Shown in pieces: positions 14,366-43,587 of a stretch of 64,000 bases of DNA (position 1 is its first letter; every line of letters starts with the position of its first letter). Position numbers and translations under genes: made by a program. The stretch comes from Halarcobacter sp. (GTDB lineage Bacteria; Campylobacterota; Campylobacteria; Campylobacterales; Arcobacteraceae). The stretch spans positions 928,001 through 992,000 of the forward strand of contig CP182352.1 in assembly GCA_048571215.1 (NCBI GenBank). The letters are read 5' to 3'. The notes under the pieces were generated by a model. The model made no database searches. It was not told the origin of the DNA and saw nothing but the letters and a program-made list of their open reading frames with translations.

Positions 14366-14432
14366 ATAAGTTCAATTAGTTATAGAGTTGTAATCTTTAG
14401 TTAATATTCTTTTTGATACACTTTTTCTAAAT

Positions 14433-14572
14433 TTATTTCTCAGGGCAAGGTGAAATTCCTTACTGGTGGTAACTATACTTAATAGAAGTCCACGAGCGCT
14501 TTATTTTATAAGGGTCAGCAGATTTGGTGTAAATCCAAAACCAACCGTAAAGTCGGGATGGAAGAGAAAATA
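14433..14572 (+). ncRNA. FMN riboswitch (RFN element)
   Basis: CTCAGGGCAAGGTGAAATTCCTTACTGGTGGT...CAGCAGATTTGGTG...AGTCGGGATGGAAGAG directly upstream of ribB. Confidence 0.95.
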
Positions 14573-14661
14573 ATATGTCTTTTTATTGTTAGATGATAAG
14601 GATAATATATTCTATTAGCCCTGATTCAATAAGTTTACTTAAAAACAAAGGTATAACTAAA

Positions 14662-29256: not shown

Positions 29257-30287
29257 GTTTAACAAAATGATAAATATATTATATTGTGATTGGCTAAAAC
29301 TATTATCGAAATATTTGAATGTAAATAAACTTTTACTGTACGTCTTGGCTTTCTCGACTTTTTTTTGTGAAAAAAAAAGTAGCAAAAAAATCATCCCGCA
29401 GATTTCGAAGGCGGAAGCTCCCCTCTCTTATTATTCATCCCTTTTGAGTGACTAAAAACTTACTAAAACGTGAGTTTGTCACGTTTCTTTACGCTTCAAA
29501 CAGTTTAGTCACTTGTTTTCAAAAGAGATAAATAAACACTCGGCTTCTCAAATGCGGGAAGATGGGAAACTGACCTTTGCATTTTTTGGTACCATTTTTT
29601 TTGAATTGGTGTAATACTTAATTTATACAAAGAAAGTTTGCAGCTAGTGTATTTAGTCCAGACTTTGTTGAAGCCGGAAGTTTTCTAATTATTTTCGGAG
29701 AAGACCGAGGACCGTTCAACTGGATAAAAGGTACTAGATGTACCTTTTAGGAAGGCGTTCCGCAGGTCAGAAGATAATTAGAAAGCTGTAGGGAACTTTA
29801 GCTTCAACAACCGTCTGGTTGCTTTTTGCCATACTTTTTACAATTAAAAAGTATGAAAGCGGAGAACTTTGTTCTTCAAGACAATTGCATACAATAAAAA
29901 CTATTATCAAAATATTTGAGTGTAAATAAACTTTTACTGTACGTCTTAGCTTTCTCGACTTTCTTTTGTGAAAAAGAAAGTAGCAAAGAAACCATCCTGC
30001 GGGTTTCGAAGGCGGAAGCTCCCCGAGCTTTTCATTCATCCCTTTTGTGTGCCTAAAAACTTGCTCTTGTGCTTGCACTCTCTGTGAGAAAACGTTCTCC
30101 CAGAACGTTTCTTTACGCTTCAAACAGTTTAGTCACTTGTTTTCAAAAGAGATAAATAAACACTCGGCTTCTCAAATGCGGGAGAGTGGGATATTGACCT
30201 TTACATTTTTTGATACCATTTTGTTTAAGTTGCTGTTATACTCAACAATTATTATAAAAGTGGAGATTCATTTTCTGGGGGTGTCAC
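29257..30287. repeat. Structured repeat block 1 (units A-B-A plus GGGGTGTCAC end)
   Basis: About 1 kb direct-repeat homology to 35350-36367; nested hairpins; A approx 29296-29620 and 29897-30245, B approx 29633-29880. Confidence 0.9.
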
Positions 30288-35349: not shown

Positions 35350-36367
35350 GTTTAACAAAATGATAAATATATTATGTGTATTTGGATAATACTATTATCA
35401 AAATATTTGAGTGTAAATAAACTTTTACTGTACCTCTTGGCTTTGTCGACTTTCTTTTGTGAAAAAGAAAGTAGCAAAGAAACCATCCCACAGGTTTCGA
35501 AGCCGAAGGTTCCCTCGCTTATTATTTCACTTTTCTATTTTTTAAAACTCGCTAAAACGTAAGTTAGTTACGTTTTTGACACTCAGACAGTTAAAAAACT
35601 TTTGCCTGCAAGCAGGATTACATCCGAAAAGCAAAATAAACACTCGGCTTCTCAAATGCGGGAAGGTGGGATAATGACCTTTTCATTTTTTGGTACCATT
35701 TTGTTTGGATTTGTGTAATACTCAAATAGTATGAGAAAGTTCAAGGCTAGGGTATTTTAGTCCAGACTTTGTTGAAGCTGGAAGTTTTTTAATTATTTTC
35801 GGAGAAGACCGAGGACCGTTCAACTGGATAAAAGGTACTGAATGTACCTTTTAGGAAGGCGTTCCGCAGGTCAGAAGATAATTATAAAACTGGAGGGAAC
35901 TTTAGCTTCAACAACCGTCTGGCTGCTTTTTGTCTTACTTTTTACAACTAAAAAGTGAGAAAGCGGAGAGCTTTGCTCTACAAGAGGGTGTATACAATTA
36001 AAACTATTTTCAAAATATTTGAGTGTGAATAAACTTTTACTGTACGTCTTAACTTTACCGACTTTCTTTTGTGAAAAAGAAAGTAGCAAAGAAACCATCC
36101 CACAGGTTTCAAAGCCGAAGGTTCCCTCGCTTATTATTCATCCCTTTTGAGTGCCTAAAAACTTGCTAAAACGTGAGTTAGTCACGTTTTTTTACGCTTC
36201 AAACAGTTTATTCACTTGTTTTCAAAAGAGACAAATAAACACTCGGCTTCTCAAATGCGGAAAGGTAGGAAATTGACCTTTGCATTTTTTGATACCATTT
36301 TATTTGAATTGGTGTGATACTCAACAATTATTATAAAAGTGGAGATTCATTCTCTGGGGGGTGTCAC
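35350..36367. repeat. Structured repeat block 2 (A-B-A plus GGGGTGTCAC end)
   Basis: Homologous to 29257-30287, including a 26-bp identical start GTTTAACAAAATGATAAATATATTAT. Confidence 0.9.
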
Positions 36368-39220: not shown

Positions 39221-39673
39221 TTTTTTGCCTGCAAGCAGGATTACATATTGAAAAAAGTAAAACAAAAAGCAACCCGCAGGTTTCGAAGATGAAACTAGCC
39301 TCACTTATTATTTATTGCTTCTCAAATGCGGGAAGGTAGTATAAAGACCTTTGCATTTTTTGGTACCATTTTATTTAAGTTGGTGTTATGTTAAATTTAC
39401 ATCAGGAAGTTTGTGGCTAGTGTATTTTAGTCCAGACTTTGTTGAAGCCGAGTGCTTTGCTTTTTAAAGCGGAAAAAGCCGAAACTGTTTGAAGAAAGAA
39501 AAGTGACTAACTCACTTTTTCGAGGAGTTTTGCAGGCTAGCTTTAAAAAGTGAAGTGGGAGGGAACTTTAGCTTTAACAACGCGTCTGGTTGCTTTTTGT
39601 CTTACTTTTTACAACTAAAAAGTGAGAAAGCGGAGAACTTTGTTCTACAAGAGAGTGCATACAATTAAAACTA
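39221..39673. repeat. Structured repeat block 3 (partial A plus B)
   Basis: CCCGCAGGTTTCGAAG...GCTTCTCAAATGCGGG, then TAGTCCAGACTTTGTTGAAGCC...GTCTGG. Confidence 0.85.
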
Positions 39674-39717
39674 TCTATAAATCTATTTAACTATTTACTT
39701 AAATCATATTTTTCATA

Positions 39718-41257: not shown

Positions 41258-41345
41258 TTATTTTTTCTCAAACGCAAGCTTTATCCCTAAACAAATCAAA
41301 ACTGTACCACTTGTACGATTGATTCATTTTAGTACAGATTCATTA
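41258..41345 (-). pseudogene. LysE/RhtB-like C-terminal remnant
   Basis: SVLK*INRTSGTVLICLGIKLAFEKK*. Confidence 0.5.
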
Positions 41346-41583
41346 TTCAGGACCTTTGGATTTTTTATACCATTTTATTCGAATTGGTGTAATACTTAAA
41401 AAGCATTCTAAAAGTTTGAGGCTAGGGTATTTAGTCCAGACTTTGTTGAAGCTGGAACTTTTTCTTTTTTTATGGTGAAAAGTGAGGACGTGTTTGAGCG
41501 TAAAAAAGAGTGACTAACTCACTCTTTTAGCGAGTTGCCACCTTAAAAGAATATAAAAATTCCATATAAAATTTATAATAAAA

Positions 41584-42555
41584 TTAAATTTTTTCTGAAT
41601 CATATGGTACATTATTTTTATATACGGCATGAGCAATAACTAATAGTTTTCTCATAATTGCTACTTGTATAACTGTAGTATGTTTTCCATTTTCTTTTAG
41701 TCTATCATAAAACTTTCTTAATCTTTCGTTATTTCTTATTGATGTCATTGCTGGCATAAACAAAGTACCTCTACATATTTTTGAACCTGCTTTTGATATT
41801 TTTGTTTTTCCATTAACTGATATACCTGAACTTTTTTCTATTGGATCTAATCCTGCTAAAGATACTATCTGTTTTTGATTAGCATTTTTATATTGAATAA
41901 AATGTATAAGTAATACAATTGAAGATATTTCTCCTATACCATCAATTGTTTGCAAATTATTAAATGATTGTTGAAGTTTCTCATCTTTTTTTATGATTGA
42001 TTTTATTTTTTTGATAATTTTTTGTTCTTGTTTTTTTAAAAATTGATTTTGTAATTCAAACTCTTTTATCAAATAGCTTTTATCTTTTTTTGCTTTTAAA
42101 GCAGCTATATGGTTTTTAGTTATAACTTGTTGTTTAATAATTAATTTATATCCAGAAATAAGCTCTTTTAATTCTTCTTCTATGGTATCTACAATAGGTA
42201 TTTTAATATCTTTATCTTTAGCTGTAACAATCATTTTAGATAAAAGCTGTGCATCTTTTATATCATTTTTATTTCTATATCCCATTACTTTTGCAAAGCT
42301 AGCACTTTTTTTAGGATTTACTATAAAGCTTTTTATATTTTTGTTTGCACAAAACTGTTTTAAAAGAAATGAATAATTAGCTGTTGGTTCATAAACAAAT
42401 ACTAATTTATCTATCTCTTTTTTATAAAGCTTTTTTAGTTTAGAGTACAAACTTTTTATTCCATTTAAACTATTATCAATAATTAAATCTAAATCATTTA
42501 TTGGAATATAAACATTAATTGTTGACTTACTTACATCTAATCCGATAGAATACAT
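41584..42555 (-). CDS. IS110 family DEDD recombinase/transposase
   Basis: IGLDVSK, YEPT, KND..DA, GIG, AGLDP...SSG, MRKL. Confidence 0.95.
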   Translation of the reverse strand: MYSIGLDVSKSTINVYIPINDLDLIIDNSLNGIKSLYSKLKKLYKKEIDKLVFVYEPTANYSFLLKQFCANKNIKSFIVNPKKSASFAKVMGYRNKNDIKDAQLLSKMIVTAKDKDIKIPIVDTIEEELKELISGYKLIIKQQVITKNHIAALKAKKDKSYLIKEFELQNQFLKKQEQKIIKKIKSIIKKDEKLQQSFNNLQTIDGIGEISSIVLLIHFIQYKNANQKQIVSLAGLDPIEKSSGISVNGKTKISKAGSKICRGTLFMPAMTSIRNNERLRKFYDRLKENGKHTTVIQVAIMRKLLVIAHAVYKNNVPYDSEKI

Positions 42556-42614
42556 TTCTAGAACCTTTATTTTAGGATAAAGAGTTCGTTAGGGTAGGAT
42601 TTCTCCTACCTGAT

Positions 42615-42805
42615 AATTGTTATACAAACTTTAGACTTATAAAATACGAACTAGTTATAAAACTGTTCTTGTTGCCACTCAAATTTAAAGTATAACTATC
42701 AAACTCGCCATCAAGCTAATTATAAATTATTTTTTATAATTGCTTTAGTTCCGCAACGATATATTATCTTTCAAACTCTTTGGAAATATATTAACTATAT
42801 TCCCT
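42615..42805 (-). ncRNA. Predicted IS110 bridge RNA
   Basis: 5' hairpin, then two internal loops whose segments match the reconstructed target and donor junctions. Confidence 0.8.
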
Positions 42806-43587
42806 TAAATGTATTATATAAGTCCCGCAACGCAATAAAAAAATAGAAAGTGGAAGGTAGCTTTGCCTTCAACAACGCGTCTGGTGGCTTTTGTTTTACT
42901 TTTACCACTAAAAGTAAAGAAAGCGAAGAACTTGTTCTTCAAGACAACTGCATACAATAAAAACTATTTTCAAAGTATTTGAATGTAGTTAAACTTTAAC
43001 TGTACCTCTTGGTTTTTTCGACTTTTTTTATGAAAAAAAAGTAGCAAAAAATCACCCGCGGGGTTTCGAAGGCGGAAGCTCCCCTCGCTTATTATTTATT
43101 ATTTCTGTTTTGTCTTGTGCTTGCACTCTCTTTGAGAAAACTCACATAAAAATATGCTCCCAGCATATTTGTTCTGTTCAAACAGTTACAAAACTTCTCC
43201 GAAACAATAAATAAACACTCGGCTTCTCAAATGCGGGAAGGTGGGATAATGATCTTTGCATTTTTTGATACCATTACATTCAAAATTACTGTGATACTCA
43301 ATATCTATTTTAAAAGTTTGTGGCTAGTGTATTTAGTCCAGACTTTGTTGAAGCCGGAAGGTTTTTAATTATTTTCGGAAAAGCCTGAGAATGTTTGAGG
43401 AGAGAAAAGTGACTAGATGTCACTTTTTCGACGAGTTTCGCAAGGCAGAAAATAATTAAGAACCTGTAGGGGACTTTAGCTTTAACAACCGTCTGGTGGC
43501 TTTTCTCAAAGAGAGTGTAAACACAGGTTTTACTTTTACCACTAAAAGTAAAGGAAGCGAAGAACTTTGTTCTTCAAGATAAAAAAC

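Follow-up and report, generated by a model that had tools for sequence, protein, structure and literature searches.

A probable IS621-type bridge RNA in an IS110-group insertion sequence of Halarcobacter sp. residing in an intergenic repeat

The best described relative of the element considered here is IS621 of Escherichia coli, a member of the IS110 group whose bridge RNA has 177 nt (Durrant et al., 2024, PMC11208160; Hiraizumi et al., 2024, PMC11208158). In the description by Durrant et al. this RNA consists of a 5' stem-loop and then a pair of stem-loops that have internal loops, conservation being poor in the first and good in the second (PMC11208160), and in the account of Hiraizumi et al. 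the two loops of the synaptic complex are contributed by two RNA molecules and the top strand is cleaved after the core (PMC11208158). For CazIS110-1 of Caloranaerobacter azorensis, an abundant target-loop-only RNA beside the full bridge RNA and a transfer of the top strand only have been described (bioRxiv 10.1101/2025.10.25.684509). Here we have analyzed a stretch of 64,000 nucleotides of Halarcobacter sp. (assembly GCA_048571215.1, contig CP182352.1, positions 928,001 to 992,000), referred to as the window, with positions counted from its first letter. We are highly confident that the segment 42823-41533 (minus strand), which we call IS-A, is an intact IS110-group insertion sequence whose IS621-type bridge RNA guides it to both target and donor. 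The bridge-RNA mechanism was already described in 2024 and IS-A is a further example of it, not a new kind. Our literature search found no paper naming both IS110 and Arcobacter, and IS-A adds a readable natural example of bridge-RNA guidance from the AT-rich genome of a marine member of the Campylobacterota.

The whole element extends over 41533..42823 (minus) when both copies of the ACT/CT core (42823-42821 and 41535-41533) are included. Read from the window, its minus-strand left junction is GCGTTGCGGG-ACT-TATATAAT at 42833-42813 and its right junction AAGGTGGCA-ACT-CGCT at 41544-41529. The host genome (3.61 Mb, 28.5% GC; its positions are given after G000) contains three copies that are 100% identical over the full element. 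All three have 1285 bp between the ACT cores, non-coding ends of 265 nt at the left and 48 nt at the right, and ACT (with the CT core) at both junctions. It is the dinucleotide CT that makes up the core; the A that precedes it happens to be common to target and donor. The 48-nt right end (41536..41583, minus) terminates in the left donor, ...AAGGTGGCA(A). Outside the element, the left target (..TTGCGTTGCGGG; 42824..42835, minus) belongs to the flanking repeat unit, as seen from the sequence, the flanks of the copies and the mapping of the site, and the right target CGCT is followed by a 10-bp hairpin of the same repeat unit, AAAAGAGTGA/TCACTCTTTT (41500..41532, minus), that appears in the fold of the natural empty site.

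The sole long open reading frame (ORF) of the element (41584..42555, minus) codes for a recombinase of 323 aa, recognized by Pfam and by alignment with IS621. Both domains exceed their curated cut-offs: PF01548 (DEDD_Tnp_IS110) with an E value of 4.2e-14 over residues 4-152, and PF02371 (Transposase_20) with 9.8e-18 over residues 200-283. Residues 4-321 align with the solved IS621 chain 8wt6_A (E 1.3e-29), and ISCro4 aligns too. Residues D7, E56, D97, D100 and S243 (followed by G244) stand opposite D11, E60, D102, D105 and S241-G242 of IS621; these alignment positions were read by eye, allowing for an offset of +2 in the numbering of the chain, and the residue names are those used by Hiraizumi et al. 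(PMC11208158). Members of the 90% cluster of this protein are named "IS110 family transposase [Halarcobacter sp.]" and all 30 related loci found in reference genomes are from Campylobacterota. An earlier note on this stretch had called the recombinase compact and probably intact. The second point agrees with the open ORF and the retained catalytic residues; the first is no distinction, its length being near that of IS621, whose solved chain has 328 residues.

The long left end (265 nt) would encode a bridge RNA of about 190 nt, made of a 5' hairpin and two loops, the first binding the target and the second the donor. The four guide segments that the earlier note had read on the minus strand, CGTTGCGGAACT (42758-42747), GCGAGT (42708-42703), GTGGCAAC (42678-42671) and TATAAGT (42641-42635), are all found at those positions, and the same is true of GTTATAC (42696-42690), GTATAAC (42625-42619) and TATAAT (42818-42813); the 5' hairpin that it proposed folds at 42804-42782. 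As we delimit them, all on the minus strand, the left target guide (LTG; GTTGCGGAACT, 42747..42757) has the same sense as the left target plus core, the right target guide (RTG; GGCGAG and then UU, 42702..42709) is complementary to CT+CGCC, the left donor guide (LDG; GTGGCAAC, 42671..42678) repeats in the same sense the final 8 nt of the right end, as far as the core C, and the right donor guide (RDG; UAUAAG and then UC, 42634..42641) is complementary to CT+TATA at the start of the left end. Their lengths are 11-12, 6-7, 8 and 6-7 nt, respectively, and each includes CT or AG. As a chance control, the 268-nt left end was shuffled 5000 times with its dinucleotides preserved. The 12-mer (up to one mismatch allowed) appeared in 1 of these shuffles, the 8-mer in 2, the 6-mer in 107 and the 7-mer in 686, and all four jointly in none, indicating that the guide matches are not due to chance. 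By eye, candidate handshake pairs join the UU 3' of the RTG to donor positions 6-7 (AA), and the UC 3' of the RDG to positions 6-7 (GA) of the target of the window copy; among relatives the fit of such pairs is mixed.

In the mechanism that we propose, GUGGCAAC and UAUAAG in the donor loop would read the junction at which right end and left end are joined in the excised element, the RNA-bound DEDD/serine recombinase would exchange strands at the CT core, and the exchange would place IS-A between TGCGG(A/G)ACT and CG(C/T), just ahead of a hairpin in an intergenic repeat of ca. 560-600 bp. For transcription, RNA binding and chemistry this scheme borrows from the work on IS621; the sequence matches, the site specificity, the conserved fold, the covariation between guides and DNA and the conservation of the catalytic residues are observations of the present analysis.

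The insertion sites fit such guidance. It had been predicted that other copies would sit at sites matching the loop, and in all three copies of the genome TGCGG(A/G)ACT precedes the element and CGCT or CGTC comes after it. The left flank plus core is cgttgcggGACT in the window copy, cgttgcggAACT in the copy at G000:383455-384792 and ccttgcggAACT in that at G000:424824, and the core plus right flank reads ACTcgct in the first two and ACTcgtc in the third. The 12-mer of the loop matches the left flank at 12/12 positions in the copy at G000:383455-384792 and at 11/12 in the other two. Insertions elsewhere match the loop as well, namely near-identical copies in runs X4, X9 and X14 and a relative in a metagenome-assembled genome (MAG), L016. 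The flanks differ from those in the host genome: an element at least 99% identical lies between ..CCTGCGAAACT and CCTTCC.. in X9 and between ..TGCGGAACT and CGCTAAAA.. in X4, and the MAG relative, with 83% protein identity, is located between GCGTTGCGGAACT and CCTAAA. The reconstructed empty target also exists naturally, since TTGCGGGACTCGCT is found uninterrupted at G000:2744284, with a near copy at ca. 635.6 kb. In addition, a contig of the wastewater metagenome X11 is a precise empty site, with 41532 joined to 42821 and 1288 bases (41533-42820) skipped, and with 3 ambiguous letters.

The earlier note had the element aimed at an AACTCGC motif of the local repeat family. The target site does lie in that family, but the motif is better written as TGCGG(A/G)ACT to the left and CG(C/T) to the right of the insertion point. 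A search of the window for GCGGRACTCGC (up to one mismatch) gave no further matches. There is an unoccupied site of IS-A type, CCTTGCGAAACTCGTC (43445-43430, minus), followed by a hairpin, in the next repeat unit, ca. 600 bp upstream of the occupied one. Over the whole genome TGCGG[AG]ACT occurs 20 times: three are the guides themselves, three the occupied left junctions and 14 are unoccupied. After the unoccupied ones come CGCT (one case), TGAT (two repeat units) and TAACCC (three 16S rRNA genes), and the other eight are elsewhere. With CGCT present at just one of the 14 unoccupied sites, occupation tracks both halves of the site. A looser scan with TG[CT][GA][GA][GA]ACT gave 631 matches, a chance level, and only those within repeat units were used. 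As an observation apart, the 16S rRNA genes (G000:216107, 520681 and 3301811) contain CGTTGCGGGACT, identical to the left target with core at the window copy, and then TAACCC; none of the three is occupied, and they represent a natural half-site.

These distributions also bear on whether a genuine bridge RNA gene could belong to an element that is itself an immobile, dead relic. At least 14 homologous repeat-unit sites are unoccupied and the circle-type joint was not seen in the contigs of four runs (X4, X9, X11 and X14), although contigs cannot reveal rare circular forms. We nevertheless consider a dead relic unlikely, given the complete identity of the three copies, the open ORF with its catalytic residues, and the copies of at least 99% identity in other flanks in other runs. 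IS-A has probably been active recently.

The structure of the RNA was studied on two MAFFT alignments, A1 with 16 left ends and A2 with 46, of which 30 were added from metagenome contigs. Five of the 35 candidates were omitted from A2, L052 and L091 for having the same start letters as L051 and L082, and L059, L062 and L094 for an odd offset of the donor-guide motif. The structures were partly derived from these alignments. RNAalifold predicted 39 pairs on A1, 25 of them with double changes. The named structures on A2 had 97.4% and 97.7% of their cells paired and 25 and 27 pairs with double changes. Sliding the partner strand by 1-3 columns left 27.6-39.7% paired, and none of 500 shuffles reached any of the observed measures. 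The helices involved are a closing stem and a distal hairpin in each of the two loops and a further hairpin on the 3' side.

Along the minus strand, the predicted RNA begins with the 5' stem-loop (42782..42804), present in the minimum free energy (MFE) and the centroid folds, a position where the relatives show, by eye in the alignment, a hairpin of different sequence. The 5' strand of the target-loop closing stem, S1 (ATAAT-A-TATC with a bulged A, 42758..42767), pairs with 42700-42692; the stem was 97.2% paired in the 16 sequences and 95.2% in the 46, with double changes in six of its nine pairs. Inside this loop, the distal hairpin (42713..42745, present in the centroid fold and counted as eight pairs) was 97.8% paired (n=46), with double changes in six of the eight. 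Next comes S2 (GATAGTTATAC, 42690..42700), a shared strand that serves as the 3' strand of the target-loop stem and as the 5' strand of the donor-loop stem. The distal hairpin of the donor loop (42648..42668, seen in the centroid and by covariation) was 98-100% paired, with double changes in six of seven pairs. The donor-loop stem is completed by S3 (GTATAAC, 42619..42625), with 99.1% of pairing in A1, double changes in five of seven pairs, and 95.6% in A2. On the 3' side of the bridge RNA there is another covarying hairpin (GGTAGGA/TCCTACC, 42593..42610), 97.8% paired (n=46) and with double changes in all seven pairs, followed by the conserved CUAACGAACUCU; with this near-invariant sequence behind it, the hairpin at 42610-42593 may serve as a 3'-end or processing signal. 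The covariation-supported consensus places all four guides in unpaired internal-loop strands, as the looped arrangement originally suggested for them would have it, and the centroid of the single-sequence fold retains three hairpins, the 5' one and one within each proposed loop.

Downstream, a stem (GAAC-U-CUUUAU / AUAAAG-GUUC, 42561..42587, minus) was found by eye over the ribosome-binding site of the recombinase, its pairing being retained in relatives by GAGC/GCUC and AAGC/GCUU variants. It probably controls the translation of the recombinase. The conservation of this stem, again judged by eye, indicates that part of the leader is regulatory, and one might extend this to the whole conserved fold, taking it as a leader that controls translation and the guide-like matches as by-products of insertion beside similar sequence. 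However, the matches are in loop strands, 90-200 nt ahead of the start codon, they obey exactly the strand rule of IS621 (5' strands same-sense, 3' strands complementary) and they co-vary with DNA outside the element. This makes a mere leader exceedingly improbable.

The covariation between guides and DNA was followed over the relatives for each of the four guides. For the right donor, RNAalifold pairs the start of the left end with the RDG; double changes of CG>UA and of GC>AU were each seen in three sequences, and this pairing reached 99.0% in A2 (n=46). For the left donor, 17 of 20 metagenome relatives have an LDG equal to the final 8 nt of their right end, over five sequence variants that include GTGGCAAC, GTGGCGAC, GTAGCGAC and GTGGTAAC; in the first set it matched at 8/8 positions in 12 of 13 element types, GTGGAAAC among them (by eye). 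The right target matches its own RTG at a mean of 7.35/8 positions and other guides at 5.80/8, and among the metagenome relatives 18 of 20 pairs fit by eye, for example GGGTCAG with a right target starting with GACCC, GGGACAG with GTCCC and AACTCAG with GAGTT. For the left target, a position-anchored test, set on the inner stem with three registers allowed for each pair, gave 6.38/9 for the own LTG and 3.46/9 for non-cognate ones. None of 20000 type-level permutations reached the mean observed for the own LTG, which ranked first in 21 of 26 flanks. A previous score, the best match anywhere in the loop region (7.73 versus 6.75 of 11), was discarded as AT-rich noise and the anchored test took its place. 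We observed as well, in a 2185-nt MAG contig (L036:670-690), a relative whose left flank ends in TAAGGTAGCGACT, 13 letters of its own right end; a right-end-like sequence abutting a left end could be what is left of a previous copy, or could stem from a donor-donor event.

All this is relevant to the idea that the matching segments of the left end act as DNA, as subterminal repeats bound by protein, with no guide RNA made. The donor-matching segments indeed repeat the ends of the element itself, in direct or inverted orientation, so that binding to them as DNA is conceivable, and there is no RNA run listed for the element. The target-matching segments, on the contrary, reproduce DNA from outside the element, and in the siblings they differ as the target differs. 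Also, the five surrounding helices keep their pairing through double changes over 46 sequences, a pattern suggestive of selection on an RNA or single-strand fold, and by structural family the protein is closely related to an enzyme shown to depend on the RNA (Durrant et al., 2024, PMC11208160). We therefore regard the DNA-repeat explanation as very improbable and retain that of a bridge RNA.

The target of IS-A belongs to a non-coding intergenic repeat of ca. 560-600 bp with many hairpins, frequently arranged in tandem, the period being near 600 bp. BLAST of one unit retrieved 58 segments in ca. 25 places of the genome, and within the window copies were found at ca. 29350-30261, 35442-36340, 39317-39713 and 41349-43582. 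The unit matched no Rfam family. In the fold of the empty site, the core of the IS-A site lies in the loop of a 3-bp hairpin, GCG-GGACT-CGC, and the 10-bp hairpin comes directly 3' of it, with a stem that by eye varies between repeat copies while pairing is retained. The same repeat family is present in the flanks of relatives in Arcobacter iocasae and in two Arcobacter(aceae) MAGs, and, to judge from these flanks, at least four IS110 siblings have it as their landing pad.

One of these siblings, IS-B, is found in the same genome as four identical copies (G000:2826477, 2521362, 1705059 and 1467508) and one fragment, with 75% DNA and 63% protein identity to IS-A. The target-loop strands of the two have diverged, with only 6/13 LTG and 5/12 RTG positions identical, whereas S2 (10/11), the LDG strand (20/21), the donor-loop hairpin (21/21) and the RDG strand (19/22) are nearly the same; the differences in the RDG include two positions that mirror the start of the left end, TA versus CG. 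The IS-B sites have ..GGGATGGTT or ..GGGATAATT at the left and TCTTTGCTAC at the right, and its loop, which reads GGGUGGUU + AAAGAAG, spells its site, GGATGGTT followed by TCTTTG. Several unoccupied GGATGGTTTCTTTG sites lie within repeat units; the scan behind this count used the IS-B 14-mer with up to three mismatches and gave 448 matches, mostly by chance, so that only those inside repeat units were considered. Mapped on the empty unit at G000:2744100-2744760, IS-A crosses at 2744292-94, IS-B at 2744660-61 and a five-copy element of A. iocasae (61% identity) at ca. 2744238. For another relative, L032 (69% identity), the right flank corresponds to the last 41 nt of the left flanks in A. iocasae (90-93%), which puts its site ca. 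40 nt further upstream. Four siblings are thus found at four positions of one repeat family, with the loop matching in each. In IS-B and in L040 the left junction has TT, the right junction CT and the LTG reads UU. IS-B thus uses a target whose core differs from that of the donor, which fits cleavage of the top strand after the core on a TT target. Elsewhere in the host genome, at G000:810157, there is a solitary right-end-like TTTTTAAGGTGGCAACT followed by GACCCC; a protein search found no recombinase gene nearby, and it has the look of a remnant from a third type of IS110, one that targets GACCC.

The shared strand S2 deserves separate consideration. Its stem with S1 has nine pairs and a bulged A and that with S3 seven pairs, and the two uses of S2 overlap by 5 nt, so that both stems cannot form in full. 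Both pairings co-vary, a C/U/A column of S2 being met by G/A/U in S1 and in S3. In 14 of 15 sequences a 4-bp loop-1 stem together with the loop-2 stem was more stable than the long loop-1 stem alone, by 0.7-9.4 kcal/mol. A reading that goes beyond the bridge RNA itself, and that we advance tentatively and with more doubt than conviction, is that the RNA of this Campylobacterota clade is two-state, with S2 closing either loop and each molecule presenting one complete module, and that in at least four siblings the target loop alone has been redirected, to four positions of one repeat that serves all of them as landing pad. The two RNA molecules described for the IS621 synapse and the abundant target-loop-only RNA described for CazIS110-1 make a two-state RNA plausible by analogy. 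If true, it would be a hard-wired version of the two-RNA synaptic loops of IS621 and a possible source of target-loop-only RNA. The shared-strand stems, if functional, would also bear on how a single RNA serves two DNA partners.

Several findings weigh against an IS621-type bridge RNA in IS-A and have to be set beside the evidence above. Some concern the fold. With the 5-nt overlap, a canonical two-loop fold would close the target loop by just 4 pairs. The single-sequence fold beats shuffles only weakly (z -1.92, with 8 of 200 shuffles folding as well), and the MFE structure pairs 5 nt of the LTG, GUUGC (42757-42753), with GCAAC of the LDG (42675-42671). This pairing, not present in the centroid, belongs to a structure with an ensemble frequency of 0.0005, and it is probably incidental, since the different target guide of IS-B could not form it. 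Others concern the guides: the right targets of the L016 and X9 copies fit the RTG poorly unless G-T wobbles are counted, those of L068 and L069 mismatch it (by eye), and the own LTG was not the best in five of the 26 flanks (L019, L029, L031, L033 and L018), single or paired copies from a group with ~54% identity. The remaining ones concern expression. The TATAAT -10 box at left-end positions 3-8 (42813..42818, minus) is the likely promoter of the bridge RNA, and (C/T)(G/A)TATAAT or a one-off variant begins the left end in most rows of the alignments. A sigma-70 scan of the integrated copy found no minus-strand promoter at the left end and no -35 hexamer, and by eye no -35-like hexamer is found 16-18 nt away in the right end at the reconstructed junction. 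Promoters of Campylobacter type in the Campylobacterota usually have no -35. No RNA run is listed as containing the stretch. In Rfam, an E-value search of 41300-43100 gave only a sub-threshold SNORA16 (19.6 versus 35 bits), one repeat unit gave sub-threshold small RNA matches only, and the scan of the entire window at gathering thresholds detected no bridge-RNA family, so that the RNA assignment depends on our own alignments. The only family found by that scan was a flavin mononucleotide (FMN) riboswitch (RF00050, 121.9 bits) at 14432-14573 on the plus strand.

IS-A, IS-B and two relatives make up a natural reprogramming series, in which scaffold and donor loop are kept constant and four target loops go with four sites in one repeat. 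Such a series is useful to learn which scaffold positions tolerate change and how G-U wobble broadens targeting. For the host genome, the finding accounts for seven insertion sequence copies, with the repeat family as the safe harbour in which they sit.

The earlier note had also assigned the RNA to the layout of IS621, and the protein family, the long left end as site of the RNA, the 5' hairpin with two internal loops, the senses of the strands and the CT core all agree with the description by Durrant et al. (PMC11208160). The recombinases have the same two domains with their catalytic residues aligned. In both elements, as far as IS621 has been described, the long left end carries the RNA, whose start would lie right after a -10 box at the boundary, and besides the 5' hairpin there are two internal loops with a distal hairpin in each. 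The 5' strands of the loops are same-sense and the 3' strands complementary, with a CT core read by the guides. IS-A conforms to the rule of the IS110 group by which the 5' strand reads 8-9 nt of the bottom strand and the 3' strand 4-7 nt of the top strand. Among relatives the first loop varies and the second is conserved, as in the IS621 account, and the repeated intergenic target adjoining a hairpin recalls the repetitive extragenic palindromic (REP) targets given for IS621. There are also differences. IS-A resides in a host of ~30% GC, one of the Campylobacterota, its LTG matches 11-12 nt against the 9 described for IS621, its loops have no linker and their closing stems share 5 nt, and its junction has no recognizable -35. 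Its target unit is of ca. 560-600 bp with several hairpins, compared with the ~35-bp REP described for IS621.

Elements of the IS1111 type, with their seekRNA, share with IS-A the recombinase family and the logic of the guides; in the description of Durrant et al. it is a long right end that carries their RNA, and their subterminal inverted repeats are of 7-17 bp (PMC11208160). Membership of IS-A in this seekRNA type was considered and rejected, the right end being merely 48 nt and the structured RNA lying in the left end. ISPpu10 of Pseudomonas putida, as reported (bioRxiv 10.64898/2026.03.19.712850), resembles IS-A in that its insertions are all in one conserved intergenic sequence, with a stem-loop beside the base-paired target. 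It differs in that its stem-loop is a GC-rich 5' extension with a proven role in specificity, whereas the conserved hairpin of IS-A is 3' of the target. With CazIS110-1, going by what has been reported of it (bioRxiv 10.1101/2025.10.25.684509), two parallels may be drawn: the shared-strand stems of IS-A could yield a target-loop-only conformer, and the TT (left) and CT (right) cores of IS-B would fit a top-strand exchange after the core.

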